IMG/VR virus record: IMGVR_UViG_3300020450_000010
Span: 60,716-124,715 of that record
DNA from: a virus
Strand: one strand, 5' to 3'
DNA: 64,000 bases
A model generated the notes under the pieces. It saw nothing but the letters and a program-made list of their open reading frames with translations, was not told where the DNA came from and did no database searches. Below are positions 15,760 through 64,000 of this stretch, piece by piece. Each line of letters starts with the position of its first letter. The first letter of the stretch is position 1. The position numbers and the translations under genes were made by a program.

Positions 15760-15788
15760 TTGACAACTCGCAATATAGAGTATATACT
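15760..15788 (+). promoter_or_regulatory. Sigma70-type early promoter
   Basis: TTGACA-N17-TATACT upstream of the sigma gene. Confidence 0.75.
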
Positions 15789-15810
15789 GATAGAAATCAA
15801 AGGAATAACA

Positions 15811-22297: not shown

Positions 22298-22546
22298 CTA
22301 TAGTTGAGTTGTTATTTTACCTTTGCGTTGATTCATTTGTTGCTTTTGTTTATCTATGTTTTCTTGTAACATTTCTTTGATCTCTAAGAAATCTCTTATA
22401 GGCATATCTAATAATTCATTTCTACTAAAAGCACCATTAGTATGAATCTGAACATCATTTATCATAGTTCGATAATTTTTGTTTATGTCTTCGTGGCGTT
22501 TAACAAGTTCATCAACTTTTGCTTTGTCATTTTTAGTTAGACTCAA
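22298..22546 (-). CDS. Small protein coupled to the gp26-like gene (possible hub assembly factor)
   Basis: 82 aa with FSRNELLDMPIRDF; overlaps the stop of the upstream gene. Confidence 0.6.
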   Translation of the reverse strand: MSLTKNDKAKVDELVKRHEDINKNYRTMINDVQIHTNGAFSRNELLDMPIRDFLEIKEMLQENIDKQKQQMNQRKGKITTQL

Positions 22547-23382: not shown

Positions 23383-23390
23383 TTTTCGCC

Positions 23391-23420
23391 TATAAATAAC
23401 TGTATATAAAAGTATTTATC
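23391..23420. promoter_or_regulatory. Pair of late promoters facing each other
   Basis: TATAAATA on + at 23391-23398 (for the tape-measure-like gene) and GATAAATA on - at 23413-23420 (for the gp26-like gene). Confidence 0.6.
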
Positions 23421-23438
23421 TAATTAAGTGAGCAGTTA

Positions 23439-31260: not shown

Positions 31261-31268
31261 AATAAATA
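31261..31268 (+). promoter_or_regulatory. Late promoter variant AATAAATA
   Basis: AATAAATA-TGTA, then an AGGAG RBS and the ATG at 31289. Confidence 0.6.
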
Positions 31269-31288
31269 TGTACAGTAGGAGATGATCG

Positions 31289-42260: not shown

Positions 42261-42569
42261 ATGGCACAAGTATTTAAAAATTATACACAAGCATCAATAG
42301 GAACATCACCCGCAACTGTTTACACAGTACCAGGAGCAACTACAAGTATTGTAATTGGATTAAACTTAGCAAACAGAACAGCAAATACAATTACAGCAAG
42401 TGCTCAATTGGGTAGTGTTTATATTATTAAAGATGCACCAATTCCAGGTGGAGGTGCATTAAGTGTGCTTGAAGGAAAAATCATAGCAGAAGCCGCTGAC
42501 ACAATAGTGGTAACCAGCAATACTGCATCAAGCACTGATGCAATAGTTAGTGTATTAGAGCAGACATAA
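42261..42569 (+). CDS. Small beta-rich structural/adaptor protein
   Basis: 102 aa, coupled to both neighbours. Confidence 0.65.
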   Translation: MAQVFKNYTQASIGTSPATVYTVPGATTSIVIGLNLANRTANTITASAQLGSVYIIKDAPIPGGGALSVLEGKIIAEAADTIVVTSNTASSTDAIVSVLEQT

Positions 42570-44038: not shown

Positions 44039-44047
44039 GGATATAAA

Positions 44048-44305
44048 ATGGCAATAACAAAAACATATGCATACAAAAAAAGAACAGATGACTTTGGAGA
44101 TCTGTTGGGTATTGCACATAGAGTAACACTTGTAAAAGATGGCGTAACCAAAAAAATATCAGCACAAGAAGTCATAGGCGAAGCTGATGAGCTGGGTATT
44201 GCAACAATGACTGATGCTGAACTTTTAGCTCATTGTAAAACAATGTTTAGTGATGATATGATAGAAGCGGCATTTGACGTAGAAGATCCTCCAGCACCAA
44301 GTTAA
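44048..44305 (+). CDS. Small partner protein of the fibre gene
   Basis: 85 aa with an AAGGA RBS; its stop codon is the first TAA of junction element copy 1. Confidence 0.65.
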   Translation: MAITKTYAYKKRTDDFGDLLGIAHRVTLVKDGVTKKISAQEVIGEADELGIATMTDAELLAHCKTMFSDDMIEAAFDVEDPPAPS

Positions 44306-44340
44306 ACATAAATATGTATAATAGATAAGGTATACGTATG
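44303..44340 (+). repeat. Cassette junction element, copy 1
   Basis: TAAACATAAATATGTATAATAGATAAGGTATACGTATG. Confidence 0.9.
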
Positions 44341-46770
44341 GCTCTCAACAAACTAACAGCAGATGCACTAGTAGACGGCACACTTGATGCTGATGCTATT
44401 GGTACTGCTAGTGTAACACATCAAAAATTACATTCAAATATTATTAGTGGACAAACTGCAATTGGTACAGTTGATGCTAGTAACGACTTGCTATTAATTT
44501 ATGATAATAATGCAACCAGTTTGAAAAAAGTACCAGTATCAAGTGTAGGTGCTACAAATACCGATTCAATCACAGAAGGTAGTTCTAATCTATACTATAC
44601 AAATGCTAGGGCAGATGCAAGAGCTCAATTAAAAATAGATGCATTAGTTGACAGTGCTCCTGGTGCTCTTAACACATTAAATGAACTGGCGGCGGCATTG
44701 GGAGATGACGCAAATTTCTCTACCACCGTGACTAATAGTATAGCAACTAAACTACCACTAGCTGGTGGTACAATGAGCGGGGATATTGATGGCAACGGAA
44801 ATAAAGTCCTATTTGCAAATGTATACGCTCAATTAGCTGATTTACCAAGTGCGAGCACCTATCACGGAATGTTTGCTCATGTTCATGCTACCAACGCGGC
44901 TTATTATGCACATGCAGGTGCATGGGTACAATTAGCAGATAATAGTAATGTATTGCAACTTTCGGGTGGAACACTTACAGGCAATTTACAATTTGCTGGA
45001 GGAGGAACCGTAAGTTCAAACGGTGCATCCGACACAGTTGTTTTGTCAGGTTCTACGGCAGTAAACCTCGGAGGTAATATAACTTTACATGGACAAAGTC
45101 ATAGTAATGCAAGCCAGATATTCTTTAAAAATGGTTCAACTAATGCAATGACAATTGCAGGTGGTAAGGTTGGTATTGGTACAGCGAGTCCAAGTGCTCC
45201 TTTAGATGTAGTTGTTAATAATACTGTATATGTAGGAGAATTTATACAGCAAAATACTTCCAATGGAGATGGTGTACTTATACAGGTAGGTAGTACAGCG
45301 GCGGCTGACTATGCTTTAACAGTAAGGTCAGATGCTGGTAACACTTCTGTGTTGGCGGCTAAAGCAGATGGTAATGTTGGTATTGGAACTTTTACTCCTT
45401 CTTATAAACTGCATTCAGAAACATCAAGCGGTACAGATTATGCTGGATATTTTCGCAATACATCAGGTTCTGGAAATAGTACATCTTTGATTGCAAGAGG
45501 TGGCGCAAACAATACATCAGCTAACTTTCAAGTGCAAGACTATAATGGAAACGCTGATTTTACAGTGACTGGTGTAGGTAAGGTTGGTATTGGTAATACT
45601 GATCCAGGGCAACTCTTAGAAGTGACAGGATCAGGTGCTACAATAAGAGTTGAAAGTACAGACAACAATCCACAAGGTATTGAGTTTTATCAAACCAATA
45701 CTAAAAATGCAAGCATCATGTGGGGACAAGGTAATGCAAATTTAGAGATTAGAAATTTTAGAAATGATCAAAATGCTAATCATCTTTATGCTAACATTGA
45801 TTTTTTCACTGGTGGATCAAATGCAACTAGTCCAAATTACAATCCTGAACTAAGAATGAGAATTACAGATGACGGCACAATAGGAATAGGAGACTCAGAT
45901 CCTAAAGAAATGTTGGTTGTTACAGGCGGTGGAGCAGGACATGGATTATTACTAGGAGTCGTAGACACAGGCGGAAGTCAACCAACAGTTGGTACAGCTT
46001 TAGCAAGTATAGGATTCAAACACTACACAAGTGGGGCGACAAATAATAATGCTGACGCTAAAATTGATGCTGTGGTAGATTTATCAGATCATTCAGGTAC
46101 ATCAGCTGGTACAGCCCTGAGATTTTATACAAAACCTACAAGTACTGGTCCAGGAAGTGCTCCTACAGAAGCAGTAAAAATTACAGAAAATAAAAAGATT
46201 ATTCAAAATGGTGGCGGATATTATGCCGCACTCCATAACTCATCATCAGCTGGTTTTTATGGTGATGGAATTGGATTTGCAATGGGACCTGCATTTAGAA
46301 GTTCTAATTATTATTATGGTAATTCAACAGGTAGTTTTGATTTTGTGACAATGTATGCTAGTGGACATTGGGGAACAGGACATGAAGGATATCTTTGGCT
46401 TATCACAACATACTACAATCCAGGACATAGACTATATCACTTTGTACAACACAGAGGTGGACACATTACACTTAGTTTGATACATACCAGAGGTGAAAAT
46501 GGAGGTTGTACAGCATCAACTGTAACCAATACTTCAGGTGGAAATCACAGTGGACAAAGTGTAGCACAAAGCAGTATAAGAATTAGCAGTGGATTTACAT
46601 ATGAAAATCACTATGCGGTACTGCAATTCAATCATTCAGGAGCTTCAACTAGAGTATATGATAGTTCTAGTACTGCTTCGAATGTACAAACCAATGCTTA
46701 TTCAAATGGTAGTACTGTACACTTTCTATCAATGGGTGTACAAGGATATCCAGGGAGGGCTACAGCATAA
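44338..46770 (+). CDS. Tail fibre/receptor-binding-like protein (810 aa)
   Basis: Shared N-terminal modules, several GxVGIG repeats and a unique C-terminus. Confidence 0.72.
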   Translation: MALNKLTADALVDGTLDADAIGTASVTHQKLHSNIISGQTAIGTVDASNDLLLIYDNNATSLKKVPVSSVGATNTDSITEGSSNLYYTNARADARAQLKIDALVDSAPGALNTLNELAAALGDDANFSTTVTNSIATKLPLAGGTMSGDIDGNGNKVLFANVYAQLADLPSASTYHGMFAHVHATNAAYYAHAGAWVQLADNSNVLQLSGGTLTGNLQFAGGGTVSSNGASDTVVLSGSTAVNLGGNITLHGQSHSNASQIFFKNGSTNAMTIAGGKVGIGTASPSAPLDVVVNNTVYVGEFIQQNTSNGDGVLIQVGSTAAADYALTVRSDAGNTSVLAAKADGNVGIGTFTPSYKLHSETSSGTDYAGYFRNTSGSGNSTSLIARGGANNTSANFQVQDYNGNADFTVTGVGKVGIGNTDPGQLLEVTGSGATIRVESTDNNPQGIEFYQTNTKNASIMWGQGNANLEIRNFRNDQNANHLYANIDFFTGGSNATSPNYNPELRMRITDDGTIGIGDSDPKEMLVVTGGGAGHGLLLGVVDTGGSQPTVGTALASIGFKHYTSGATNNNADAKIDAVVDLSDHSGTSAGTALRFYTKPTSTGPGSAPTEAVKITENKKIIQNGGGYYAALHNSSSAGFYGDGIGFAMGPAFRSSNYYYGNSTGSFDFVTMYASGHWGTGHEGYLWLITTYYNPGHRLYHFVQHRGGHITLSLIHTRGENGGCTASTVTNTSGGNHSGQSVAQSSIRISSGFTYENHYAVLQFNHSGASTRVYDSSSTASNVQTNAYSNGSTVHFLSMGVQGYPGRATA

Positions 46771-46997
46771 TGGAAAAAACAGTTTGGTTTTTTATTGATA
46801 GTGATGATAAAATGATACTTGCTTGTGACAGTTCTGATGGTTGTACACAAGAGTATGCAAAGAGAATTGAATACAACTATACAAAAGATTGTGTAGCTTT
46901 TGATTATATCGACGGATCTCCATATGGATATACAAATCAAGAGATGATAGATAGAATAGTAAGTGGTGAGTTAGTAGTGGAAGACTATGATCCATAA
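46770..46997 (+). CDS. Small partner protein
   Basis: 75 aa, TAATG-coupled to the fibre gene. Confidence 0.6.
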   Translation: MEKTVWFFIDSDDKMILACDSSDGCTQEYAKRIEYNYTKDCVAFDYIDGSPYGYTNQEMIDRIVSGELVVEDYDP

Positions 46998-47000
46998 ATA
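46993..47000 (+). promoter_or_regulatory. Late promoter variant CATAAATA (degenerate junction)
   Basis: Overlaps the upstream stop, followed by AGGA and the ATG at 47019. Confidence 0.55.
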
Positions 47001-47018
47001 TTATGAACAGGAAGTTTT

Positions 47019-48725
47019 ATGTCAACTCTTAAGATAGAACATATTGCAAATATAGCAAACAGTGGACCTGACATCAGTATTGATACCAACGGTCACCTCA
47101 ACATTGTAAATGGAAGTTTACAAATGGGCGGTACCACCATGTTGGATACCAGTGACACAACACTTAAAAATGTAAGCAAAATAGGTATTGGTACTGCTAG
47201 TCCTGGATACAAATTACAAGTAGATCATGGAACTACGGCACAATATGCTAGTTCTATTAGAAACACAGCAGACAATTTACAATTACTGTTAGGAACTACA
47301 ACTGGCGGTTTGCTAAACATACAAGGTAAAACAATTAATTCAAATGCGGTTTATCAAATTTCATTACAATCTGAAGGAGGTAACGTTGGTATTGGAACTA
47401 CAACTACAGGTGCAAGAAAAGTCAGAATAGTTGGCAGTTCATCTGCTTATCCATTAGCACTTGATAGTACTGATACAGATTATCAGTTAGAATTTCAAAA
47501 AAATGGAACTTCTGAATGGTGGATTGCGGCAAGTGCTAGCAGTTTTAAAATACATGAAAACGGAGTAGGTGATAAACTAACTATACTATCAGGTGGCAAT
47601 GTTGGCATTGGTGTAACTAATCCGAGTGCTTATTACTCCAAGGATTTGGTTCTCGGTGCTGTTGATGAAGGAGGTATGACATTTGTTTCTGATCCTGCAC
47701 ACAGAGCTTATATTATGTTTGCAGATGGTGCTAGTGGCGGAAACGAAAGATACAGAGGACAAATTAGTTATGATCATGCAAATGATCAAATGTCTTTTAC
47801 TACAGCGGCAAGCACTGCCGTAACAATTGATAGCTCCGGTGATATTGGAGTGGGGGTTGTTCCGTATGCTAATGCAAGACTAACCATTGGTGGTGGTGAT
47901 GGCGGTGGATATCCAGCTGTATTAATGTATGATAATAATAACTCTAGTGGTGCTGAATTCTTTATGCTTGCCACAGACACAAATTGGGTAGCTGGCTCTA
48001 ATAAATTTATTATGGGACATGGCGCACCTTCTAGTGGTAATACTGATGTTACTATAGATAGTAATGGTTATGTTGGAATCAATACCACAAGTCCACAAAG
48101 AGCGTTACACATACATGATCATTCCGCAACTGGTTTACATATTACTAATACACAAAGTGGTGCTGGTGCTAATGATGGTTTTAGTCAATATATCAGAGAT
48201 GACAACCAAGCTACTGAATTAATGGTAAGAGAAAATAGCTATTTGGGTTTTGGAACCAATAATACACTACGAGCTAAAATTTTAAGTTCAGGTGAACTCT
48301 TTTGGCCTGAAATTAGTAATAGAGGAGATCTAACATTTCCTATTTGTAGTATCAGTAATAATGGTAGTGGTGGTCAATACTTACATGCACAGTTTCAATC
48401 ATATGGCGGAGTTATGTTACACATAAGTTTCAAAGGTTATGATTACACTGCAAATATTAAGAGTGGAAGTGGTGGAACATATGTTTATAACACAGCAGGT
48501 CAACAAGTAGGATATAGCAGAGCGTTTAGTGGAGATTGTGTAGAAGTATATCAAACCACAACAAATAGAGTTGAACTGGTGATTAACACAGGCGGAAGTG
48601 CTACTGGTAACAGATGGGGAAGCATGGTTTTCTTCGGAGGAACAGATACAATTACCGGTGATACTCCACTTACACTAGTGCAATACGGTTGGAATGGTAG
48701 CACATCAAGGATGTTTAGCTCATGA
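47019..48725 (+). CDS. Tail fibre/receptor-binding-like protein (568 aa)
   Basis: Multiple GNVGIG repeats. Confidence 0.7.
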   Translation: MSTLKIEHIANIANSGPDISIDTNGHLNIVNGSLQMGGTTMLDTSDTTLKNVSKIGIGTASPGYKLQVDHGTTAQYASSIRNTADNLQLLLGTTTGGLLNIQGKTINSNAVYQISLQSEGGNVGIGTTTTGARKVRIVGSSSAYPLALDSTDTDYQLEFQKNGTSEWWIAASASSFKIHENGVGDKLTILSGGNVGIGVTNPSAYYSKDLVLGAVDEGGMTFVSDPAHRAYIMFADGASGGNERYRGQISYDHANDQMSFTTAASTAVTIDSSGDIGVGVVPYANARLTIGGGDGGGYPAVLMYDNNNSSGAEFFMLATDTNWVAGSNKFIMGHGAPSSGNTDVTIDSNGYVGINTTSPQRALHIHDHSATGLHITNTQSGAGANDGFSQYIRDDNQATELMVRENSYLGFGTNNTLRAKILSSGELFWPEISNRGDLTFPICSISNNGSGGQYLHAQFQSYGGVMLHISFKGYDYTANIKSGSGGTYVYNTAGQQVGYSRAFSGDCVEVYQTTTNRVELVINTGGSATGNRWGSMVFFGGTDTITGDTPLTLVQYGWNGSTSRMFSS

Positions 48726-49018
48726 CAAAAATGGTTACAAAAGCAGATGGCACAGTCAAGTATGTTGAAGATGCATTTTTAGACAGTGTTGTAGAAGAAA
48801 CTGATACTGTACAAGACATGCCTGTATTAGAACGCAGAGAACCTACAGCAGAAGAAATTGCTAATAATTTAGTAGCAGGTGATAATATCCGAGCTAGAAA
48901 ATATCTAGCAGATACAGATTGGTATGTAACTAGAAAAGCAGAAACAGGCAAAGATATACCAGATGATATCTTAACCAAAAGACAAGAAGCTAGAGAGAAA
49001 GTCAAGGCTATTGACTAA
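48722..49018 (+). CDS. Probable fibre assembly chaperone
   Basis: ARKYLADTDWY...RQEARE resembles the L..TDW...RQ.LRD tail-assembly-chaperone motif. Confidence 0.6.
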   Translation: MTKMVTKADGTVKYVEDAFLDSVVEETDTVQDMPVLERREPTAEEIANNLVAGDNIRARKYLADTDWYVTRKAETGKDIPDDILTKRQEAREKVKAID

Positions 49019-49053
49019 ACATAAATATGTATAGCAAATAGGGATATATTATG
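49016..49053 (+). repeat. Cassette junction element, copy 2 (diverged)
   Basis: TAAACATAAATATGTATAGCAAATAGGGATATATTATG. Confidence 0.85.
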
Positions 49054-51189
49054 CCGTACATTGGACAAGGTCTTACTGAGGGTAGACGTAGAGCTCATAA
49101 TTTTGTAGCAACAGCAGGTCAGACTACATTTTCAGCAACGTATGATGCTGGATTCATAGATGTATATCAAAATGGTATTTTGCTTACTGCAAGTGATTAT
49201 ACAGCTACCAATGGTAACACAGTTGTATTGGGTGTTGGTGCTAGTGCTAATGATGAAATAACAATTATTGCACATCAAATCTTCAGTATTAGTGATACAG
49301 TTAGTGCGGGTCAAGGTGGCTCATTTGGTGGCGCTATAGATGTAACAGGCAATATAACAACCACAGGTAGTTTACAAGGTCCAAGCAGTTTTACAATAGA
49401 TCCTGCAACTCACGGTGATAACACAGGTACAGTAGTCATAGCAGGTGACTTGACGGTAAATGGTACTACTACAACAATTAATTCAACAACACTTACAGTA
49501 GACGACAAAAATATTATCATAGCAAGTGGTACTTCAAATAGCAGTACAGCAGATGGCAGTGGCTTAACAATTGATTTAGGCAGTGATGGTACAGCAACTA
49601 TGGTGTATACACATGCAACAACTAGTTTTGATTTTAATAAAGCCATAAAAGCAGATTTACTCAGTGTTGCTCGTGGCTCTGGCAGTCAAATGATTATCAG
49701 TAATACAAATAGTTCAGGAATACAAATTAAAGGTAATTGGATTAGATTACAAAAACCAGGTACTAATACTGATATGATTGTAGCAAAACCTGACGGGGAA
49801 GTTGAACTATATCACAGCGGAAGTCAAAAATTAGAAACTACTTCTACTGGAGTCACTGTTACTGGAAATTTACTTAATTCAGCCGCGACTCAAGGAAATG
49901 CTTTTGTAGCCAATACATCAAGTACATGGAACGCACTAGAAATATTTCAAGATAGAGGTGTTGCAAACAGTGCATCAGGCATAGCCTTTCGATCACAATC
50001 TGGAACTGCACCTGCTGGAATTGTTAGTGTAGCTTTGAACACAACAGGCGGAAGAGAAGAGCTAGCATTTTTAACAAGTATTGGTAATGTTACTAATGAA
50101 CGTATGCGTATTGATGAATCAGGCAATATTGGTATTGGTACAAATAGTCCTGCCGGTATACACAGTCTGGCTAAAGTTTTAGAAATATCTGGTGGAGATG
50201 GCGGCGACCTTATCATAGGAAATAATGCTTCTTCAAATATCGGAGCAGGTGCTCATATAGGGGCAATAGCTTTTAAAAACATAGATTCAAGCACTGGTAG
50301 TGTTCCGCACTATGCAGGAATAAGAAGTGAAGCAGTAGATACAAGCGGAAACATGGATCTTCGTTTTTATACAGGTACAGCAAATTTAGAAGCTGATACT
50401 CCTCAAGTATATGTGTCAACTGGTGGTCATGTAGGCATTGGTACAACTAATCCTGGAGGTACTCTTGAAGTCACCGGCAGTTCTTTTACCAATGATGATG
50501 CTATCAGAGCAATGAAGACAGGTGAATCATCATTTGGAATACAACCAAGAGATGACGGACTTGTAAGATTTTTAGTTAACCGAATAGATAGTGGTGGTAC
50601 ACATGGTAGTTATCAATTCAATACTAGAGATGGAGGAACAACCCTAACTAGGATGTCAATTGATAACTCTGGTAATTTTCTAATTGGTGACATTACTGCT
50701 CAACCATCAGGCAGTACTGGTGGTTCAGCGTTTATGAACTCTAGTCATGGTCGCAGAAATCTTTGGTTAGCAATGACTACAACCGCTGATAATTCTCTTG
50801 TAATCTTTGCTAATCCCAATGGCATTGTAGGGCAAATTAGAACTAGCGGATCAGGTACAACTTATGTCACTTCATCAGACAGACGATTAAAAGAAAATAT
50901 AATACCAATACAAGATGCTACTGAAAAGATATTGGCTATGAATCCTGTTTCACATACTTGGATAAAGGACAAAACTGCACCCGCACAACATGGTTTTATT
51001 GCACAAGAAATGCAATCTATTGTTCCTGAAGCTGTAAGCGGAGATGCAGACGGTGAAGAAATGATGCAGATGGATTATGGTAGACTTACACCTGTAATTG
51101 TTAAATCGCTACAAGATGCATTAAAAGAAATATCAAGTTTGAAACAACAGATAAGTAAATTAGAGGAAAAAATAAATGTCACTAAGTGA
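49051..51189 (+). CDS. Tail fibre/spike protein with a C-terminal S74 intramolecular chaperone
   Basis: TSSDRRLKENI...HGFIAQEMQSIVPEAV...MDYGRLTPVIVKSLQD followed by a coiled coil. Confidence 0.82.
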   Translation: MPYIGQGLTEGRRRAHNFVATAGQTTFSATYDAGFIDVYQNGILLTASDYTATNGNTVVLGVGASANDEITIIAHQIFSISDTVSAGQGGSFGGAIDVTGNITTTGSLQGPSSFTIDPATHGDNTGTVVIAGDLTVNGTTTTINSTTLTVDDKNIIIASGTSNSSTADGSGLTIDLGSDGTATMVYTHATTSFDFNKAIKADLLSVARGSGSQMIISNTNSSGIQIKGNWIRLQKPGTNTDMIVAKPDGEVELYHSGSQKLETTSTGVTVTGNLLNSAATQGNAFVANTSSTWNALEIFQDRGVANSASGIAFRSQSGTAPAGIVSVALNTTGGREELAFLTSIGNVTNERMRIDESGNIGIGTNSPAGIHSLAKVLEISGGDGGDLIIGNNASSNIGAGAHIGAIAFKNIDSSTGSVPHYAGIRSEAVDTSGNMDLRFYTGTANLEADTPQVYVSTGGHVGIGTTNPGGTLEVTGSSFTNDDAIRAMKTGESSFGIQPRDDGLVRFLVNRIDSGGTHGSYQFNTRDGGTTLTRMSIDNSGNFLIGDITAQPSGSTGGSAFMNSSHGRRNLWLAMTTTADNSLVIFANPNGIVGQIRTSGSGTTYVTSSDRRLKENIIPIQDATEKILAMNPVSHTWIKDKTAPAQHGFIAQEMQSIVPEAVSGDADGEEMMQMDYGRLTPVIVKSLQDALKEISSLKQQISKLEEKINVTK

Positions 51190-51724
51190 TTACAAAGTTG
51201 GACAATATGGTGGATATTATGACCATAGCGATTTAGCGAGTGCAAATCCTGTCCAAGGTTTTCCATTTCAACACACTCTTAATTTGTACACTTACCACGC
51301 AGGAGGAGGTAGCTACTATGCAAGGACTTGCAAACTTTGTAAATTCTCACCTAATCAAGGTCAGGAGCAACTTTATTCAGCAACCATTATTCGAAAAGGT
51401 GATTTAAATTATACCAATCAATATGCAGTTCTTGATGTATACATTGGTATCTGGTCCAGTCAATCTGGTAATTATAATTTTAATTGTAACGAAAGATTTG
51501 GTAATTCCGCAAATACATCAAGATTTGCTTTTGATTCAGATGGACAAGTTTGGTTTCATAATGATGGATTATGGTCACAATGGACTACTATCGTAGTTCA
51601 TAAGGTTCAAAATATAAGTTTTGCAGGGACAGGAGAATCACGTACTTATCATGACCATAGTAGCACATATCATAGTGTAGCTAGTGGTGCTAATCATCAA
51701 AGGGAATCAACTTGGGGTAGTTAA
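51176..51724 (+). CDS. Stand-alone beta-rich protein, possible receptor-binding tip
   Basis: 182 aa, rich in aromatic residues, Gly and Ser; lies between fibre and chaperone genes with a GAGG RBS. Confidence 0.55.
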   Translation: MSLSDYKVGQYGGYYDHSDLASANPVQGFPFQHTLNLYTYHAGGGSYYARTCKLCKFSPNQGQEQLYSATIIRKGDLNYTNQYAVLDVYIGIWSSQSGNYNFNCNERFGNSANTSRFAFDSDGQVWFHNDGLWSQWTTIVVHKVQNISFAGTGESRTYHDHSSTYHSVASGANHQRESTWGS

Positions 51725-52029
51725 TGGCAGAACAAAATTACACAGAAGAAGAAATAAAACTTACAATGATTGCACATGATTGTACAAGAGAAGAAGCAAT
51801 ATCTACGCATTGTGCAAGTGTACGAGCATCTCGTGAAGAACAAAGACCAATATTAGAGTTGCAACAACTTAGAGAAGTAAGAAATCGTATGATTACGCAA
51901 ACAGATTGGTGGGCAGGCGCCGATTTGACTATGACTCAAGAACAAAAAGACTATCGGCAAGCTCTTCGTGATATTACAAAAACGTATAAGTCAGTAAGAG
52001 ATGTAGTCTGGCCCACACCGCCTAGCTAA
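51724..52029 (+). CDS. Phage tail fibre assembly chaperone
   Basis: LREVRNRMITQTDW...YRQALRDIT...VVWPTPPS. Confidence 0.78.
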   Translation: MAEQNYTEEEIKLTMIAHDCTREEAISTHCASVRASREEQRPILELQQLREVRNRMITQTDWWAGADLTMTQEQKDYRQALRDITKTYKSVRDVVWPTPPS

Positions 52030-52064
52030 ACATAAATATGTATAACAGATAAGGTATACATATG
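52027..52064 (+). repeat. Cassette junction element, copy 3
   Basis: TAAACATAAATATGTATAACAGATAAGGTATACATATG. Confidence 0.92.
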
Positions 52065-54308: not shown

Positions 54309-54329
54309 ATAATACAAACGGAGAAATAC

Positions 54330-54599
54330 ATGCCAGATATTACAATTAGTATAACAGACACAGAGAAAAAAGCACTTGAATATGCGATGGTTGATATCAG
54401 TGATTGGACTGACAATGCAGTAACCAATCGTGCTAGAATTGCCAAAGATGAAATTATCAGACAATTAGTAGCACATTGTAATGCCAATGGCATAGCTATT
54501 GCTACAGGTGAAGATGCACAAGTAACCCAAGCATATGATTTAGGCGTAGTTAAAACAGCAGTACAGCAAAATGCAGATTCAGAAGCAGTAAAAGAATAA
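54330..54599 (+). CDS. Small partner protein
   Basis: 89 aa with a GGAG RBS; follows the C1q-tipped fibre. Confidence 0.65.
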   Translation: MPDITISITDTEKKALEYAMVDISDWTDNAVTNRARIAKDEIIRQLVAHCNANGIAIATGEDAQVTQAYDLGVVKTAVQQNADSEAVKE

Positions 54600-54605
54600 T
54601 AAATC

Positions 54606-54643
54606 TAAACATAAATATGTATAACAGATAAGGTATACATATG
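54606..54643 (+). repeat. Cassette junction element, copy 4
   Basis: TAAACATAAATATGTATAACAGATAAGGTATACATATG, identical to copy 3. Confidence 0.92.
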
Positions 54644-56455
54644 GCTTTAATATTAGATGGAACCACAGGATTTAACTTACCATTAGGAGCAGAAATTGGC
54701 GTAGGAACTAATGCTCCTGGCGGTAATGGGTTGCATGTGGATCACACAGCTGGCGCAACACTAAGACTTACAAGATTAGGAACCAGCACATCACATTATG
54801 TACAACTTGAAACTGATGGTGCTCATGGAACACTTAGTAGTACTGGTGATTTATTCCTAAACGCAGACGGAGCTGATATAAAATTAAAAGATGGTTCCAC
54901 TGAATTTGGAGTTTTTTATAACATATCTTCTAATTTTGGTATTGCTTCTCAAGTTCAAGATAAAGATATAATTTTCCAAGCAAATGATGGCGGTTCAACT
55001 ATTACAACCATGACTATTAAAGGTGATGGTGGTAACGTTGGTATTGGTCAAACTAACCCTACGTATAAGTTTGAAGTAAGTGGTACTGGTGATACGGTAC
55101 AATACATAGCAAATGCAAATCCAAGTGGAACACAAGGAAGAACACTAGTAATTAGAGACAATTATGCAAGTGCTAGTCAAGACAGTAAAATAAGTTTTGC
55201 GGCAACAAGTTCTCCTGGAAATGATGTTTACCTTGGAAAACGTACAACTTCAAATGCAGGCTTTTTCCATCTTACAAACAGTGGTGGTACAGAGCATATG
55301 ACTGTTAACATGGCCAATGGTAATGTTGGTATTGGCGCAACTACTCCACAATGTGGACTTAACATTTTTGGAGAGAGTACAAGCAACTGGGCTGATAGTG
55401 ATGCTATGTACAATAAAGATCATCCAGCATTTCTTAAGATTACAAATGGACAAGAAACTGTAGGTGTTGAGTCTGGTATAGTAATGAGATCAAAAACTAG
55501 TGGTGCAGGCGTTTGGTCTATGTATGCAAAACAGACTGCTAACTATCTTGCTGATCTCCATTTTAGAGGAAGAAATGCTGGTAATACTAGTGCAGTAAGA
55601 TTAACATTAAAATCAGATGGTAAAATTGGTATTGGCACACAGACTCCATACAATAATTTACATGTCTTTCAAACTGCAAACAGTGGAAATAATTACAATC
55701 AAGGTACTCTCCAAGTAGGTGGTACATCAGGTACGCTTGGATTTGCTATGAACTATTCGGCGCTAGGATCAGGTAGAGCAAATATAGTTGCACAGAATCC
55801 TTCGGGTGGAACCAACAATAGAATCAGTCTAGGATTTGGCGCAGTTCAAAGTTATGGTGAACCTGCAGACAGGGTTCTTACTATAGATCAAGGTCATTTT
55901 GTACATCACACTCCATCTACTGCTGTTCGTTTTATGCCTATGATTTCACCGCAAAGTGTTACTAGACATGGTGCTTATCCTACTCACCCTGGCGGTGATA
56001 GTGTAGGAACCAATCAAACCAATGCAACACAAATAGGTTTTGCACATGTATATCAAAGAAATTGGAGCGGCGGTCGATATATACATATGAAAACTAATAT
56101 ACCTTGTTCAGGTTCAAACTATGGAATGATTATGGTTTATGCAAAAGGCTATAGATATTCACCAGGTGGTTCTATAGACAGTAGTTGGGGATTTCACAAC
56201 TGGGGAGGTGCTATATATTCACTAGATCAACGTAATTATGCTACAACTTTTGCTGTAAATTGTTATGCTACAAGTGATAATTACTGTGTATTGGTTGGTG
56301 ACAATCAATCTTCTGGATCTAGTACATATACAGGATTTAGATTAGATTTTATGTATTCAAACACAAACTATTCAGCCCATACAGAAACAGCAAATGGTGA
56401 ATCTCATTATCTTATAGCTACATCATTGTCAAGTAGTACGTCAGGAGTTTACTAA
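54641..56455 (+). CDS. Tail fibre/receptor-binding-like protein (604 aa)
   Basis: GNVGIG repeats and a unique C-terminal domain. Confidence 0.7.
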   Translation: MALILDGTTGFNLPLGAEIGVGTNAPGGNGLHVDHTAGATLRLTRLGTSTSHYVQLETDGAHGTLSSTGDLFLNADGADIKLKDGSTEFGVFYNISSNFGIASQVQDKDIIFQANDGGSTITTMTIKGDGGNVGIGQTNPTYKFEVSGTGDTVQYIANANPSGTQGRTLVIRDNYASASQDSKISFAATSSPGNDVYLGKRTTSNAGFFHLTNSGGTEHMTVNMANGNVGIGATTPQCGLNIFGESTSNWADSDAMYNKDHPAFLKITNGQETVGVESGIVMRSKTSGAGVWSMYAKQTANYLADLHFRGRNAGNTSAVRLTLKSDGKIGIGTQTPYNNLHVFQTANSGNNYNQGTLQVGGTSGTLGFAMNYSALGSGRANIVAQNPSGGTNNRISLGFGAVQSYGEPADRVLTIDQGHFVHHTPSTAVRFMPMISPQSVTRHGAYPTHPGGDSVGTNQTNATQIGFAHVYQRNWSGGRYIHMKTNIPCSGSNYGMIMVYAKGYRYSPGGSIDSSWGFHNWGGAIYSLDQRNYATTFAVNCYATSDNYCVLVGDNQSSGSSTYTGFRLDFMYSNTNYSAHTETANGESHYLIATSLSSSTSGVY

Positions 56456-56694
56456 TGTCAGAAGAAAATTTTTTACCAGAACCAACAGAAGAAATGTTAG
56501 CAGAGCATAACCTAGAAGCTCTTAGACAGTTAAGACAAAGATATCTTCAAGACACTGATTGGACACAAATGCCTGACAGTCCACTTAGTGAAGAGAAAAA
56601 AACTGAATGGCAAACATATAGACAAGCACTCAGAGATATAACAATAACTGCAACCAGTTGTAGTGATGTTGTCTGGCCAGACACCCCAAGTTAA
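56455..56694 (+). CDS. Phage tail fibre assembly chaperone
   Basis: LRQRYLQDTDWTQMPDSPL...WQTYRQALRDIT...VVWPDTPS. Confidence 0.8.
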   Translation: MSEENFLPEPTEEMLAEHNLEALRQLRQRYLQDTDWTQMPDSPLSEEKKTEWQTYRQALRDITITATSCSDVVWPDTPS

Positions 56695-56729
56695 ACATAA
56701 ATATGTATAGCAGATAAGGTATACATATG
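56692..56729 (+). repeat. Cassette junction element, copy 5
   Basis: TAAACATAAATATGTATAGCAGATAAGGTATACATATG. Confidence 0.92.
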
Positions 56730-58409
56730 AGCAATGCACGTAATTTAGGAAACATCACCACAGGCGGAGCCGTTGGTGCAACTACAGCAAGTGTTAACAC
56801 TTCAGTTGCAAATCTAGTAGATAGTGCACCAGGTACACTGAATACATTAAATGAACTAGCGGCGGCACTGGGTGATGATGCAAACTTCTCAACTACTGTA
56901 ACAAATTCAATTGCAACTAAGTTGCCACTAGCTGGTGGTACACTGACAGGTAATCTAGCACATACAGGTAATTTAACAATTGACGTAGTTGGAGACATCA
57001 CTCTTGATGCTGGTGGTGGTGACATTTTACTCAAAGATGATGGAGCACATTGGGCTTCTATATACACAAACGGAACAAATACCTACATTCAAAATATGGT
57101 TAATTCTGGAGATTTGTATCTAGCTGGTAAAGATGGTAGTGGTAATGGAGTTAATGCTCTTGTAATTGATATGTCGGCAGGCGGAGCCGTTGGTATTGGT
57201 GAAACTAGTCCTCAAAATATATTGCATATTAAAACCAGTGCGGCAGGAGGCCCGCAAATAGAATTAGATTCAACTAGTGGTACAGCTAATAGTGCATTTA
57301 TTAACTTTGACGGTACTAGTTTGCAATTAGCTACACAAAGAGATATGGTAGATGGCAGTAAACGTGATACTGCTAAAAGTTGGGGTGGCATTAATATTGT
57401 TGGAGAGGCGGCAGGATCTTACATTCAGTTTCAAACAAGTGAAGGCAATAATAATTCTGTTACAACAAAAATGACATTAACCAAAGAAGGAGATGTAGGC
57501 ATTGGAGCTACAAATCCTGGTGGTTCTAAACTTTATTTACAAGATACTCATACTACCACTGTGACTAATGCTAGTACTCTAATAGGCAACACAACATTAA
57601 CTATTAACGGTAACTCCAGTCAAGGTTCTGATGTAATGCGAGTTGGGCCGATGGGTACGGCAGGCAAATACTTTATAGATGTTTCTAACAGTGGCGCTAC
57701 TGCCAATTACGATCTTTTATTAAATCCAGTTAGCAAAGGTAAAGTTGGTATTGGTACAACCAGTGCTGTTGCGTCTCTTCATGTGGCCAAGTCATCAACA
57801 CCAGCAGTAAATACAAACGCTACAGAAACCGTTGTAGCTTTTGCCGTAGATGGAAATGAACATGGACACATCAGAGCTCACGCAACAACTATGAACTCTG
57901 GTCTAAGAGCTACTTTATACGATACAGATGGAAGCAGTGATTCTTTTGGTTATGGTATTCATGGCTATAATACTAAATTCGTAGATATCGGTAGAGCTGA
58001 CCAAGGTAATTATTATGATGGGTCCAGTGGTGACGGAAGATATACAGGCGGATTGACTTACAACACAAGATACACTAGATGGTTTTCATTCGGCGGACAA
58101 ATACTTGGTAACAACACATATTATCCTATTGCTTACAATATGAATGAATCTAAGTTTACAATTGAATGTTTTTGTGGAGATGCTAGCTCAAGAGACTATA
58201 AAAAATATGTAGGTTATTATACATCACCAGCTTATGGTGTTTATGGACTAACACAAGTAATTCATATGAATGGAGGATGGAACAGTGGCGGCTTTGACAT
58301 GCGAGTATCTGCTCCAAATGGTAATTTAAGTATTGATTTGAGATTTCAGTCGTACTATAATTCATCAAATGTAGCGAGCTACAAGTGTGTTTTTAGGGGT
58401 TTTATATAA
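56727..58409 (+). CDS. Tail fibre/receptor-binding-like protein (560 aa)
   Basis: LVDSAPGTLNTLNELAAALGDD module and GxVGIG repeats. Confidence 0.7.
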   Translation: MSNARNLGNITTGGAVGATTASVNTSVANLVDSAPGTLNTLNELAAALGDDANFSTTVTNSIATKLPLAGGTLTGNLAHTGNLTIDVVGDITLDAGGGDILLKDDGAHWASIYTNGTNTYIQNMVNSGDLYLAGKDGSGNGVNALVIDMSAGGAVGIGETSPQNILHIKTSAAGGPQIELDSTSGTANSAFINFDGTSLQLATQRDMVDGSKRDTAKSWGGINIVGEAAGSYIQFQTSEGNNNSVTTKMTLTKEGDVGIGATNPGGSKLYLQDTHTTTVTNASTLIGNTTLTINGNSSQGSDVMRVGPMGTAGKYFIDVSNSGATANYDLLLNPVSKGKVGIGTTSAVASLHVAKSSTPAVNTNATETVVAFAVDGNEHGHIRAHATTMNSGLRATLYDTDGSSDSFGYGIHGYNTKFVDIGRADQGNYYDGSSGDGRYTGGLTYNTRYTRWFSFGGQILGNNTYYPIAYNMNESKFTIECFCGDASSRDYKKYVGYYTSPAYGVYGLTQVIHMNGGWNSGGFDMRVSAPNGNLSIDLRFQSYYNSSNVASYKCVFRGFI

Positions 58410-58765
58410 TGATTAATGAAAGCGTAGGATATCTATACATAGATGCAGTGCTTGCACTAGTGCCACTTGCAAAATTTTATCCATCTGATGACGGAACTTA
58501 TGAAAATATTGAATGGGTTGACGAAAGAACACAACCAACAGCAAAAGCAGTTGCTGATAAATTAGCTGAACTTAAAACCACTGAAGGTTTATATTATGTG
58601 CGTAAACAAAGGGATATATTGATTGCAGAAACTGACTGGGTATCAGGTGAAGATGTGCCTCAAGTTCTTAAAGACAAGTGGTATGATTATAGACAAGCAC
58701 TAAGAGATATTACAAAAACATATACATCACTAGAAGATGTAGTATGGCCCACACCTCCTAGTTAA
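58409..58765 (+). CDS. Phage tail fibre assembly chaperone
   Basis: RDILIAETDW...WYDYRQALRDITKTY...VVWPTPPS. Confidence 0.8.
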   Translation: MINESVGYLYIDAVLALVPLAKFYPSDDGTYENIEWVDERTQPTAKAVADKLAELKTTEGLYYVRKQRDILIAETDWVSGEDVPQVLKDKWYDYRQALRDITKTYTSLEDVVWPTPPS

Positions 58766-58801
58766 ACATAAATATGTATAGCAGATAAAGGCATACATAT
58801 G
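58763..58801 (+). repeat. Cassette junction element, copy 6
   Basis: TAAACATAAATATGTATAGCAGATAAAGGCATACATATG (39 bp). Confidence 0.9.
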
Positions 58802-61348: not shown

Positions 61349-61349
61349 T

Positions 61350-63329
61350 ATGAGCAAAGTAAGAATATACGGTGACACTAGTGGATATGTAGACATAGCT
61401 GTACCAGCAGTGGCAGGTACAACTACACTTAACTTGGATAAAATACCACAAGCAGATATTAGTGGCAATATTGCAATGGATACTGATACACTATATATAG
61501 ATGCGGCGAACAATCGTGTTGGTATTGGTACATCAAGTCCTGGTTTTCCTCTGAGTGTGGAAAAAGATAATAGCACTTGGGTGTCTCGCATCTACAATAC
61601 AGGCTCTGATGCTGATGCTTCAGGGTTGCTTGTGCGTACAGATGCTACCTCATCACATGATGCCCTTGCTCTTGGCGTATATGCTGACAGCGGTTACAAA
61701 ATGGTCGTAAGATCAACTGGTAATGTTGGTATTGGTACAAATGCTCCTGCTACAAGTTATGGTAAAGTTTTACAAATTCACGACACTGGAACTGGTGGTG
61801 CAAATTTACGATTGACTGATGCAACCAGTGGTGCAGGAACCGGACAGGGCATGGATATAATCCAGCTTGGCGTAGATAGTTATTTTATTAACCGCGAAGC
61901 AGGAGATGTAAATTTTTATACAAATGGTCAAGAAAGAATTACAATACACGCTGATGGACATCTAGGTTTTGGTGACGGTATATTAAACGACAGTCCTTGG
62001 TCTAATGTGTTTGGTGCAAGAAGTCAATGGGATACTATGGGTACTATTGCGGCTACTAATGGTAGTATGCAAATAGGACACAATTGGTATTATGATGCAG
62101 GTGGATCAACAGGATACAAATATATAGCTGGTGGTAAAGCCAACCGAACGGTTCATGTGAATGATTACATCAGTTGGGAAATGACCAATAGCACAGGCAG
62201 TGCTGGCGGTGAGATTACATTTGTGGAAGTAATGAAACTGACAGCAGATGGTAAACTTGGTATTGGAGTTTCTAATCCTTTTGCTGATTTAACTGTTGGA
62301 ACAAGCACAGCATTTACTAATGGTGACAACTATGTTGCGGCTGTTTTCCAACCAGCTATAAGTGGTGGTGAATCAGCGGGTATGTTATTCGGACATTATC
62401 CTGCAAGTGGATATGCTAAACAAGGAATATTCTGGGAAAGATATGTGGGTGCAACTGGATCCGGCGGTCAAGGCAAACTACACTTTGTAAACAGAGCGGC
62501 AACCGATACCAGTGTTCCAACAATTGCTGATACTAGAATGACAATAGATCATCTCGGCAACGTTGGTATTGGTACGACTAGTCCTGGAGCAAAACTAACC
62601 ATCACTGATGAAAATGCTGGACAGGCTAGTATGCAAGTACGTAACTTTAACACTAGTGCAACAGGATCATTTACAAACAACTACAATGTAGAAATAAGAT
62701 CAGCTACATCTACTACCACACATGGAATGTTAATTCATTTAAATGAAAATAATATAGGCAGAAGAACTTTAGATATAGCTGACAGTGTTGGCGCTCAAGG
62801 TGACACAATTTTTGCAAGTTTTGTTCAAGGCAAAGTAGGTATTAACAATACATCACCACTAGGTCAATTGGACATTGTAGTTCCACAAGACAAAGTGCCT
62901 CTTGTGATACGATCAGGTGGTAAATCCAATATAGGTTACAATGCTGGTCATGTCATGCACTGTCATAACAGTGTTAGTTCGTCTGGTACTTGGTATGATG
63001 TGTGTTATGTAAGTCACTCTCCTAATATTTTTATTCTTGGGTCTACTGTACAAAATGGCAGTGCTCATTTGGGTGGTTCAAGATGGTGCAGTAGAATGTA
63101 CGGAACCTATGGCAGTGTAGCACACACAACTTTTGGTGGTGGAACAAGAACTGTTGCAATGAATGGCGGTGCGATTACAGGAATGGATTATAGATACTTA
63201 AACGGTGGCGCATCATCTGGTTCTTATAGACTACAGGTTTATGTAACTTGGAGTGGATCGGTAAGTAGCATGGAAGTTTATACCACAGTGATTGGAAATG
63301 GTAGTGATACGCTACAGGAGGACAACTAA
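61350..63329 (+). CDS. Tail fibre/receptor-binding-like protein (659 aa)
   Basis: NNRVGIGT and GNVGIGT repeats. Confidence 0.7.
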   Translation: MSKVRIYGDTSGYVDIAVPAVAGTTTLNLDKIPQADISGNIAMDTDTLYIDAANNRVGIGTSSPGFPLSVEKDNSTWVSRIYNTGSDADASGLLVRTDATSSHDALALGVYADSGYKMVVRSTGNVGIGTNAPATSYGKVLQIHDTGTGGANLRLTDATSGAGTGQGMDIIQLGVDSYFINREAGDVNFYTNGQERITIHADGHLGFGDGILNDSPWSNVFGARSQWDTMGTIAATNGSMQIGHNWYYDAGGSTGYKYIAGGKANRTVHVNDYISWEMTNSTGSAGGEITFVEVMKLTADGKLGIGVSNPFADLTVGTSTAFTNGDNYVAAVFQPAISGGESAGMLFGHYPASGYAKQGIFWERYVGATGSGGQGKLHFVNRAATDTSVPTIADTRMTIDHLGNVGIGTTSPGAKLTITDENAGQASMQVRNFNTSATGSFTNNYNVEIRSATSTTTHGMLIHLNENNIGRRTLDIADSVGAQGDTIFASFVQGKVGINNTSPLGQLDIVVPQDKVPLVIRSGGKSNIGYNAGHVMHCHNSVSSSGTWYDVCYVSHSPNIFILGSTVQNGSAHLGGSRWCSRMYGTYGSVAHTTFGGGTRTVAMNGGAITGMDYRYLNGGASSGSYRLQVYVTWSGSVSSMEVYTTVIGNGSDTLQEDN

Positions 63330-63583
63330 TGGCTGAAACAACAACTATAGACACACATACACTAGAACTTATACCAGAAGAACACAGAGCAAATGCTACT
63401 TCATATGAAGTACCAGATGCATTATGGACACAAAAGGATGTAGATTGGGGAAAAATAAAAGAAGGTAAAAAAGTTGGAGACGTAAGAGAACCAGCACATA
63501 CTAGATATACTGTAACATACACAGAAAAAGACCCTGAACTAGTAGCTTTAGAAAAAAGAATTGCAGACCTCGAAGCCAAGTAA
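63329..63583 (+). CDS. Small partner protein
   Basis: 84 aa with a GGAGG RBS, TAATG coupling and a C-terminal coiled coil. Confidence 0.62.
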   Translation: MAETTTIDTHTLELIPEEHRANATSYEVPDALWTQKDVDWGKIKEGKKVGDVREPAHTRYTVTYTEKDPELVALEKRIADLEAK

Positions 63584-63588
63584 TCTTA

Positions 63589-63596
63589 TATAAATA
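63589..63596 (+). promoter_or_regulatory. Late promoter TATAAATA (degenerate junction)
   Basis: TATAAATA-TGTGTAACAAAGGAATATTCT-ATG. Confidence 0.7.
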
Positions 63597-63617
63597 TGTG
63601 TAACAAAGGAATATTCT

Positions 63618-64000
63618 ATGCCATATTTAGGTAATCGTCCAGACAACATTGTTATACGAAACGCACAACAAGAATTCAATTACACTGCTACCAGCAGTCA
63701 AACAACGTTCACTGGTTTAGATACTAACAACAATACACTAGCATATAATCCTGGAAATGTCGAGGTATTTTTTAATGGTGCCAGACTTGAAGAAGCAGAT
63801 TTTACAGCGACAAACGGTACTAGCATTGTGCTTGCTTCAGCCGCCGCTACAAATGATTTAGTAAGTATTGTATCAACTGATGTTTTTGAAGTTACTGATA
63901 CAGTAAGTAGACAAAATGGTGGTACATTTATTGGTGATGTAACCATGTCTGGGAACTTGACTGTAAATGGCACAACCACTTCTGTCAATTCCAATGAAGT
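63618..64000 (+). CDS. Fibre-like protein, truncated by the window end
   Basis: MPYLGNRPDNIVIRNAQQEFNYTATSSQTTFTG...VEVFFNG parallels the N-terminus of the 49051 gene (MPYIGQG...ATAGQTTF...IDVYQNG). Confidence 0.75.
   Translation, partial: MPYLGNRPDNIVIRNAQQEFNYTATSSQTTFTGLDTNNNTLAYNPGNVEVFFNGARLEEADFTATNGTSIVLASAAATNDLVSIVSTDVFEVTDTVSRQNGGTFIGDVTMSGNLTVNGTTTSVNSNE

Follow-up and report, generated by a model that had tools for sequence, protein, structure and literature searches.

This study concerns a 38-nucleotide (nt) element that recurs between the cassettes of a large tail-fibre gene array in IMG/VR virus record IMGVR_UViG_3300020450_000010. The record is an unclosed contig of 124,715 bp, estimated by CheckV at about 35% of the expected genome, of which a stretch of 64,000 nt (hereafter the window, meaning the whole of that stretch) was analysed. 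The record belongs to an uncultured marine jumbo myovirus that is T4-like and has a capsid of the Rak2/PA5oct type. All junction elements, fibre genes and partner genes lie on the + strand of the window, where they are arranged as follows (aa, amino acids; ORF, open reading frame).

42569..44038, + strand: fibre Z, 489 aa, the first fibre of the array
44048..44305, + strand: 85-aa partner gene without a family match
44303..44340, + strand: element copy 1, made up of the TAA of the 85-aa ORF, the CATAAATA core, a TGTATA box, a leader with AAGG and the ATG of fibre A
44338..46770, + strand: fibre A, 810 aa
46770..46997, + strand: 75-aa partner ORF without a family match
46989..47021, + strand: degenerate element before fibre B, with the CATAAATA core kept and neither TGTATA box nor inverted repeat
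47019..48725, + strand: fibre B, 568 aa
48722..49018, + strand: 98-aa partner gene, tail-fibre assembly (phrog_4912)
49016..49053, + strand: element copy 2, before fibre C, with the 5' 18 nt canonical and the 3' half diverged (GCAAATAGGGATATATTATG)
49051..51189, + strand: fibre C, 712 aa, with a Peptidase_S74 intramolecular chaperone end
51176..52029, + strand: two partner genes, a 182-aa ORF without a match and a 101-aa Phage_tail_APC chaperone with the C-terminus DVVWPTPPS
52027..52064, + strand: element copy 3, before fibre D, exact consensus
52062..54308, + strand: fibre D, 748 aa, with a borderline C1q-like end
54330..54599, + strand: 89-aa partner gene (MPDITISITD) without a family match, with its own conserved 22-nt upstream spacer
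54606..54643, + strand: element copy 4, before fibre E, exact consensus; the upstream ORF ends 7 nt earlier, at 54599
54641..56455, + strand: fibre E, 604 aa
56455..56694, + strand: 79-aa Phage_tail_APC chaperone
56692..56729, + strand: element copy 5, before fibre F, exact consensus
56727..58409, + strand: fibre F, 560 aa
58409..58765, + strand: 118-aa Phage_tail_APC chaperone
58763..58801, + strand: element copy 6, before fibre G, 39 nt long with a one-base insertion in the loop
58799..63329, + strand: fibres G (849 aa) and H (659 aa), with no intervening element
63329..63583, + strand: 84-aa partner ORF without a family match
63585..63620, + strand: degenerate element before fibre I, reading TATAAATATGTGTA...
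63618..64000, + strand: fibre I, running off the contig end

The large ORFs matched PHROG tail-fibre families. Four of the small ORFs (98, 101, 79 and 118 aa) matched tail-fibre assembly or chaperone families (phrog_4912 in all four, PF16778 in three), and the 85-, 75-, 182-, 89- and 84-aa ORFs gave no match in the family searches. An earlier reading of the DNA alone (the original prediction) had described fibre C-termini of different kinds; the S74 end of the fibre at 49051 was well supported (59.3 bits against a cut-off of 22), whereas the C1q-like end of the fibre at 52062 was borderline (23.5 against a cut-off of 23.7 bits).

We confirmed by a pattern search and by reading of the junctions that six near-identical copies of 38 or 39 nt and two degenerate copies sit exactly at junctions of the fibre array, as had been proposed. 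The pattern TAAACATAAATATGTATA-N10-TATACATATG, with up to three mismatches allowed, occurred at four sites, at 44303 (one mismatch) and at 52027, 54606 and 56692 (no mismatch), compared to zero expected from 100 shuffles. The copies at 49016 and 58763 and the two degenerate ones, which read CATAAATATTATGAACAGGAAGTTTTATG at 46993 and TATAAATATGTGTAACAAAGGAATATTCTATG at 63589, were found by direct reading of the junctions, beyond the pattern search. In five of the six copies (44303, 49016, 52027, 56692 and 58763) the upstream small ORF is terminated by the first TAA, and in all six the final ATG opens the next large ORF (44338, 49051, 52062, 54641, 56727 and 58799), both as originally described. 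The element is the only non-coding DNA between the cassettes and lies between the upstream stop codon and the downstream Shine-Dalgarno (SD) sequence and start codon. Its full 38-nt form is found only in the fibre array within the contig, and the 12-mer TAAACATAAATA occurs six times in the whole 124,715 bp, every time at one of these junctions. Pairwise identity among the six copies is 1.00 over a 14-nt core and roughly 0.6-0.7 over the leader, and drops to about 0.3 within 10-20 nt on either side of the element; the repeat is therefore not a remnant of recent whole-cassette duplications. A search of Rfam returned no family match for the element.

The 5' half of the element (CATAAATA-TGTATA) resembles a T4-type late promoter. 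The CATAAATA core occurs seven times in the window, always on the + strand, always at an array junction and 25-31 nt before a fibre ATG. It matches the T4 late box TATAAATA at seven of eight bases in the six canonical copies and at 46993, while TATAAATA itself is present at 63589. The shorter motif NTAAATA lies 18-50 nt upstream of 19 of the 113 ORFs of the contig, and 11 of these are outside the array, including the genes for the portal (25412), the baseplate hub (22543, minus strand), a 640-aa ORF (23439), the fibre connector (31289) and a 1778-aa fibre-like protein (35813). Many of the outside sites also have a TATA-like box 3-6 nt downstream. Two features elsewhere in the window bear directly on this comparison.

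15760..16689, + strand: gp55-like late sigma factor (phrog_12791, E 9.2e-88; phrog_234, E 7.4e-23)
31262..31291, + strand: ATAAATATGTACAGTAGGAG...ATG, a late promoter not belonging to the array, upstream of the 655-aa fibre-connector gene and sharing only the 5' half of the element

The site at 31262 reads ATAAATATGTA, and the gp55-like factor is presumed to read the CATAAATA core. Taken together, the TATAAATA-like box, the gp55-family factor and the occurrence of the motif before virion genes genome-wide identify the element, as far as sequence can, as a member of the T4-type late promoter class and its 5' half as the general late promoter of this phage. A related motif has been described in the Rak2-like phage CBB, where, according to the available part of PMC5259590, ATAAATA is found at 35 places before structural genes, also occurs in phage GAP32 and was likened to the T4 late promoter. 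Similar to the motif described there, the core at the array junctions matches TATAAATA at seven of eight bases, has a gp55-like gene nearby and precedes structural operons genome-wide; here, in contrast to the motif in that part of PMC5259590, it has a second TATA-like box 3-6 nt downstream and is embedded in a 38-nt unit conserved far past the promoter. The original prediction had conceded that an element found before most late genes throughout the genome would simply be a late promoter. This holds for the 5' half, which precedes the 11 ORFs outside the array, but not for the full 38-nt form with its restriction to the array. No excess of sigma-70-like sites was detected (62 compared to 74.7 expected) and none lies at any junction on the + strand; 13 terminator-like sites were found in the region, none of them at a junction. 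Each cassette would thus carry a late promoter of its own, and read-through from upstream is likely.

The 3' half consists of a leader of approximately 20 nt with an AAGG motif (SD) 7-8 nt before the ATG. An inverted repeat connects the two halves: ATATGTATA, 9 nt long and starting within the core, recurs as its reverse complement, TATACATAT, whose last two bases are the AT of the ATG. The 9-N10-9 arrangement is present at every canonical copy and, within the contig, only in the array. In five of the six canonical copies the 9-bp hairpin is the predicted minimum free energy/centroid structure; its stem takes in the AU of the AUG, and the SD falls within the loop. Nine A/U-rich pairs make up the stem, which has no U-tract, nor is there a T-run in the DNA.

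The original prediction suggested searching related phage contigs for the element, reasoning that an identical order and content of cassettes would speak against recombination. We found the element between fibre cassettes of related contigs whose order and combinations differ. The exact 17-mer AAACATAAATATGTATA was present at 56 viral-contig loci, 18 of which, in 11 contigs, show the full junction anatomy before fibre-like ORFs; the remaining 38 look like unrelated chance matches. Several of the related contigs carry two to seven copies each. In one of them, G003, one end is 100% identical to the last 77 nt of the window (63924-64000), and beyond this overlap come the remainder of a fibre and five additional fibre genes, along with two genes for fibre assembly and three further copies of the element, before non-fibre genes follow. 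G003 thus probably continues the array of the window, in which case the array would comprise around 15 fibre genes, about twice what the window shows. With fibres named by their N-terminus, the orders compare as follows.

Window and G003: A B C D E F G H I J K L N O
G006: A E F I J K B C D
G001: N B G H E C F A I O J

Compared to the window, the block B-C-D is transposed in G006 and G-H is absent, and the arrays of G002 and G004 are much shorter. Fibre pairs that lack an intervening element stay adjacent wherever they were seen, namely G-H in the window and G001 and J-K in G003, G006 and G007. The counterpart of fibre I in G001 and G009 has a canonical 5' half of the element, unlike the degenerate copy of the window. 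Scanning metagenomes for the canonical element yielded 28 loci; pooled with the viral loci, this amounted to 47 distinct junctions, three of which were judged unrelated. All ten downstream fibre families with at least two junctions are joined to at least two upstream sequence clusters, although the clustering was crude (ungapped, 62% identity) and may split diverged orthologues.

An alternative explanation for the permuted orders is chimeric assembly at the repeated element and the conserved fibre N-termini. The relatives are all contigs from short-read metagenomes, and Logan contigs break at the element. However, the same junction types recur in at least two contigs of different records (G001/G009, G003/G006, G007/G008 and G004/G005), for example the 136-aa gene followed by fibre O in G001 and G009 and followed by fibre J in G003 and G006, and the metagenome loci L096 and L097 reproduce the 5739-nt spacing of G003, which argues against chimeric assembly. 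In addition, the window and G003 overlap over 77 nt, which makes an assembly word longer than the 38-nt repeat probable. We therefore consider that assembly chimeras are very unlikely to account for the differing orders.

The relatives also show where homology between arrays breaks. The clearest case is the junction of the 85-aa gene, which is followed by fibre A in the window and by another fibre (Y) in G002, where the homologue of the 85-aa gene (44048..44305) is 95% identical. From about 650 to 50 nt upstream, 50-nt windows are 92-100% identical between the two phages, and the last one, which includes the element, is 90% identical. The first 18 nt of the element are the same in both, five differences fall in the remaining 20 nt, and there is no similarity past the ATG. 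The shared block consists of the C-terminal part of fibre Z plus the 85-aa gene. Its left edge lies inside the upstream fibre; the unit that moved in this clearest recent exchange would therefore be a fibre tip with its partner gene, not promoter, fibre and partner together, and the element would be the right-hand crossover. The idea that self-contained, promoter-carrying cassettes move was accordingly supported in that units are bounded by the element, but not in this best-resolved exchange. Further junction pairs (upstream unit/downstream fibre) gave the following identities.

136/J compared to 136/O: upstream 0.77, element 0.95, downstream 0.32
136/J compared to O/J: upstream 0.25, element 0.83, downstream 0.64
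N/O compared to 136/O: upstream 0.35, element 0.83, downstream 0.69
84/I compared to 123/I: upstream 0.25, element 0.78, downstream 0.92
79/F compared to 86/F: upstream 0.23, element 0.83, downstream 0.74

In each of these pairs one flank is homologous and the other is at background, with the switch located in the element. Alignment ends were also enriched there: when the array (window and G003) was compared by blastn with five relatives, 32 of 258 ends of high-scoring segment pairs (HSPs) of at least 100 nt lay within 25 nt of an element, compared to 7.0 expected, although these ends are not independent of one another and the element itself gives rise to some of the HSPs through paralogous matches.

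Overall, we consider it probable that the 38-nt repeat is primarily a late promoter combined with a translation start and, secondarily, a patch of homology at which fibre operons or tip-plus-partner modules are exchanged; the patch role in such exchanges is proposed with moderate confidence. Read from 5' to 3', the element would comprise the stop codon of the partner gene, the T4-type late promoter (CATAAATA and the TGTATA start-region box), the leader of about 20 nt with AAGG and the fibre ATG. As sequence and within-genome comparison indicate, it would provide identical transcription and translation start signals for every fibre operon. The element is nearly identical at nine or more junctions of a single genome, as well as across relatives, and is the sole non-coding DNA between cassettes, from which we infer a short patch for ordinary homologous recombination. 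That blocks, either whole operons or a fibre tip with its partner, have been exchanged, transposed, gained or lost with the crossover inside the element, leaving scar-free joints, is the pattern that the comparative data show. The weak 9-bp inverted repeat may in addition pair the promoter start region with the 9 nt that end in the AU of the AUG.

Several observations weigh against this interpretation. Most HSP ends (226 of 258) lie away from the element, mostly inside fibre genes, and the fibres are mosaic throughout; the expectation that breakpoints fall at the element thus held for several junction pairs and for the 32 nearby ends, but not for the majority. Short Logan contigs ending at or near the repeat (DNA runs X6, X8, X10 and X11), compared with 44001-64000, yielded 15 joints, 12 of which had a shorter side of at most 30 nt and were disregarded. 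Two of the others, both from X10, are intragenic hybrids: one connects 49435-49641 to 52852-53393 (fibre C to D, shorter side 207 nt) and the other, in a 975-nt contig, connects 57395-57758 to 62577-63187 (fibre F to H). These hybrid fibre contigs come from another marine sample, and intragenic shuffling is therefore present in natural populations. A further X10 joint, from 58716 back to 56686 with 40 other letters between, is indistinguishable from a paralogous copy, and an alternative chaperone-element joint is possible. Leader distances were alike for different fibres of the same genome and for the same fibre in different genomes, so that within-genome homogenisation was not shown. A viable rearrangement must break in the element, and selection alone could place breakpoints there because the element fills the whole intergenic gap. 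In addition, 38 bp is short for homologous recombination, and a search of the 124.7 kb, about 35% of the expected genome, gave no RecA or UvsX gene. The element is missing before fibre A of G001, and before fibre E of that contig just its 3' half is present. The relatives are metagenome contigs among which some chimerism is possible, and the sequence data as a whole are assembled contigs rather than single molecules or transcripts. The hairpin, finally, is weak, with energies from -5.5 to -9.6 kcal/mol and z-scores between +0.27 and -1.88. Over 23 distinct copies, 85.5% of cells are paired compared to 84.9% in shuffles, 68 of 500 of which were as high; both two-sided pair changes come from a single sequence, that of G004 (35 of 500 shuffles); and when the pairing partner is slid by two columns, 67-80% of cells still pair, because the arms are AT repeats.

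Part of this evidence would also suit a rival explanation, in which the element is only a late promoter and ribosome-binding region, kept by selection for equal and strong expression of the fibres, with rearrangements breaking there simply for lack of other non-coding DNA and no special role in recombination. The core is a generic late promoter, the intergenic space consists entirely of the element, and the intragenic position of most mosaic breakpoints as well as the similar leader distances fit this explanation. However, the 11 promoters outside the array have just ATAAATA(N3-6)TATA, which is the late-promoter consensus of the clade (ATAAATA-N3-6-TATA), and are followed by leaders quite unlike that of the element; promoter function therefore does not need 38 fixed bases. 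Moreover, the joints leave no scar and retain the stop codon within the element, and in the pair of window and G002 the high upstream identity (92-100%) continues unbroken to element position 18 and is lost before the ATG, as a crossover within the repeat would leave it. On balance, we regard the promoter-only explanation as unlikely, though to be taken seriously, and prefer a promoter and start unit that secondarily serves as a homology patch.

Whether the inverted repeat acts as an RNA structure is doubtful, although such a role is conceivable by analogy with T4. In the available part of PMC3014915 (Uzan and Miller 2010), the T4 genes e, soc, 49 and I-TevI are described as having translation starts covered by an inhibitory structure whose 5' strand contains a late promoter. 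The junction element resembles that arrangement in that its 5' arm coincides in part with the late promoter and its 3' arm with the start codon, and in that only transcripts started upstream could fold. RNA initiated at the promoter of the element itself would begin within the 5' arm and form no stem, and only read-through RNA could form it. In contrast, the T4 structure presented in that part of PMC3014915 is stable and shuts off early read-through, whereas here transcripts coming from upstream would be late as well, the loop contains the SD, the stem is weak and covariation is poor. The sole two-sided change was found in a unit of G004.

24810-24849 of G004 (L064:4810-4849): late-promoter/leader unit before a 227-aa fibre-like gene outside the main array, with ATACATATA/TATATGTAT

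In this unit, ATACATATA/TATATGTAT changes both sides of two pairs in a compensating manner. Since the double change keeps the symmetry, it would also be expected if the repeat were constrained as DNA, i.e. as an operator for a dimeric, fibre-specific DNA-binding regulator, and a perfect 9-bp palindrome with a 10-nt spacer that is restricted to fibre junctions would suit such a site. The variant 3' arms TATACGTAT (two copies) and TGTACATAT (one copy) argue against an operator, as their pairing is kept only through G-U pairs in RNA; in addition, the AT-repeat arms can pair in several registers, and no candidate regulator was identified. An operator function is thus highly improbable.

The original prediction further regarded the element as a late-gene counterpart of the promoter-early stem-loop (PeSL) cassettes of T4-type phages. 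In the available parts of PMC2839356 (Arbiol et al. 2010), PeSLs are described as a sigma-70 early promoter with a strong stem-loop terminator, placed behind the stop codon of one gene and ahead of the SD and start codon of the following one; they cluster in hyperplastic regions, border indels and form mini-circles (PMC2839356; Comeau et al. 2014, PMC4122927, the latter likewise in part). As far as these sources go, the likeness is considerable: both are short repeated intergenic regulatory cassettes, with a promoter and an inverted repeat, that begin at the stop codon of one gene and extend as far as the SD and start codon of its downstream neighbour; both lie at borders of blocks that differ between relatives; and ordinary homologous recombination has been proposed for both. 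Two PeSL features, the stop-to-SD position and the location at indel or replacement borders, were thus found here, whereas the early promoter and the terminator stem-loop were not. PeSLs, as portrayed in these parts of the sources, are sigma-70 early promoters with strong, often G/C-tract terminating stem-loops that flank small ORFans, while the element has a late (gp55) promoter, nine A/U-rich pairs and no predicted terminator, and its cargo consists of virion fibre operons. The term 'late promoter' does not occur in the available part of PMC2839356. We conclude that the element is a functional analogue of PeSLs in its block-border role and in the swaps located at it, but not a member of the PeSL family. 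The stronger version, in which a portable promoter-hairpin joint allows a marine jumbo phage lineage to maintain a library of at least 15 fibre operons and to reshuffle, duplicate and exchange them continually by unequal or inter-genomic homologous recombination at the 38-bp patch, possibly via excised circles, with the hairpin insulating the translation of each fibre from read-through, is put forward tentatively; if it were true, new cassettes would be expressed at the right dose at once.

Integrons were the other system to which the array had been compared, and this part of the comparison was not upheld. Integron arrays (attC/IntI) share with the present array one-directional cassettes that are split by a short repeated element with an inverted repeat. 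In contrast, no integrase was found here, the cassettes carry promoters, the element is a promoter and leader rather than a folded attC, and crossover positions are not fixed. In keeping with the original remark that no recombinase was visible in the DNA, no match to PF00589 (tyrosine recombinases) or PF00239 (serine recombinases) was obtained in the 124.7-kb contig (about 35% of the genome), while the same search gave PF00589 hits in 14 of 14 and PF00239 hits in 12 of 14 control genomes. Sites of the attC type are longer and have imperfect paired repeats; the element is a single 9-bp inverted repeat over a promoter and start codon, no attC-type site is present, and each cassette starts with its own late promoter, for which reasons the integron reading was rejected. 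A site for site-specific recombination more generally, of the integron attC or the invertase type, with a dedicated recombinase encoded elsewhere, would be consistent with the 9-N10-9 inverted repeat at every canonical copy and with the contig covering only about 35% of the genome. The absence of PF00589 and PF00239 matches from the contig, the single orientation of the copies, each of which overlaps a promoter and a start codon, the promoters of the cassettes and crossovers at different places in and around the element all speak against it, and we consider such a site to be the least probable of the explanations discussed here.

The distal fibre tip and adhesin of T-even phages are reportedly swapped at the gp37/gp38 locus (Tetart et al. 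1998), which is similar to the present array in that a fibre C-terminal tip and a downstream partner or chaperone gene move as a module via short conserved motifs. Here, by contrast, the right-hand crossover would be a promoter and leader instead of coding motifs, and at least ten fibre genes are concerned rather than one. No description of such a fibre-junction element was found in the literature, in a limited search that is no proof of its absence from print. Fibres set the host range of tailed phages, and to our knowledge the building and rearrangement of large multi-fibre loci is poorly described. The locus offers a concrete anatomy for such a process, with one short promoter/leader unit per operon border and crossovers mapped inside it in natural populations. 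If the element is indeed a substrate of exchange, regulatory-cassette shuffling would extend from the early ORFan genes of T4-type phages to late virion genes of abundant uncultured marine jumbo phages. If it is a promoter only, a clean annotation of the late-promoter consensus of the clade and an unusually large fibre array would still remain.

A second conserved junction was observed within cassettes, where GGTAAATAATACAAACGGAGAAA..ATG connects fibres ending in G(W/F)xG(Y/H/S)L(I/V)G (a C1q-like tip) to genes of 85-92 aa that start with MPDIT(I/V). It was located at the following positions.

54309-54332 of the window: second junction GGTAAATAATACAAACGGAGAAA
approximately 12120-12147 of G001: second junction
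approximately 17350-17376 of G002: second junction
approximately 9725-9750 of G004: second junction

The pairing of this tip with the MPDIT(I/V) partner was thus found in four genomes, behind different fibre bodies. Four fibre proteins also share a short N-terminal motif of about 40-55 residues and match the same PHROG tail-fibre families (1197, 2631, 7032, 454 and others).

44338-46770: shared N-terminal motif at residues 85-139
56727-58409: shared N-terminal motif at residues 18-68
42569-44038: shared N-terminal motif at residues 31-67
33266-34225: shared N-terminal motif at residues 65-109

The motif may represent a common attachment or trimerisation module.

Outside the array, the window contains T4-type virion genes for the portal, prohead protease, major head protein and baseplate. 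The capsid region was closest to Vibrio phage 2.275.O and to PA5oct- and Rak2-type jumbo phages, with 66-68% nucleotide identity. In the DNA of Vibrio phage 2.275.O, the nearest cultured phage by capsid DNA, the extended repeat is lacking (one match compared to two in a reversed control). A megablast search with 44000-64000 against the phage collection gave no match, and tblastn with a conserved 102-aa gene returned distant marine phages only, with at most 51% identity and no close cultured relative among them. Two further features of the window complete the picture.

17526..20299, + strand: SbcD/SbcC-like (T4 gp47/gp46-type) recombination nuclease genes
35813-41149: 1778-aa fibre-like protein with its own CTAAATA promoter

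The homologues of the 1778-aa protein are far shorter, with 1216 aa in G002 and 1009 aa in G004. Between the hub gene (22543-23382, minus strand) and the 640-aa ORF (23439, plus strand), two late-promoter boxes lie back to back and diverge (23385-23440). An ORF of 142 aa (21492-21920), located between the SbcC-like gene and the hub gene, matched phrog_447 and the homing-endonuclease PHROGs 7363 and 314, and may be a mobile endonuclease gene.

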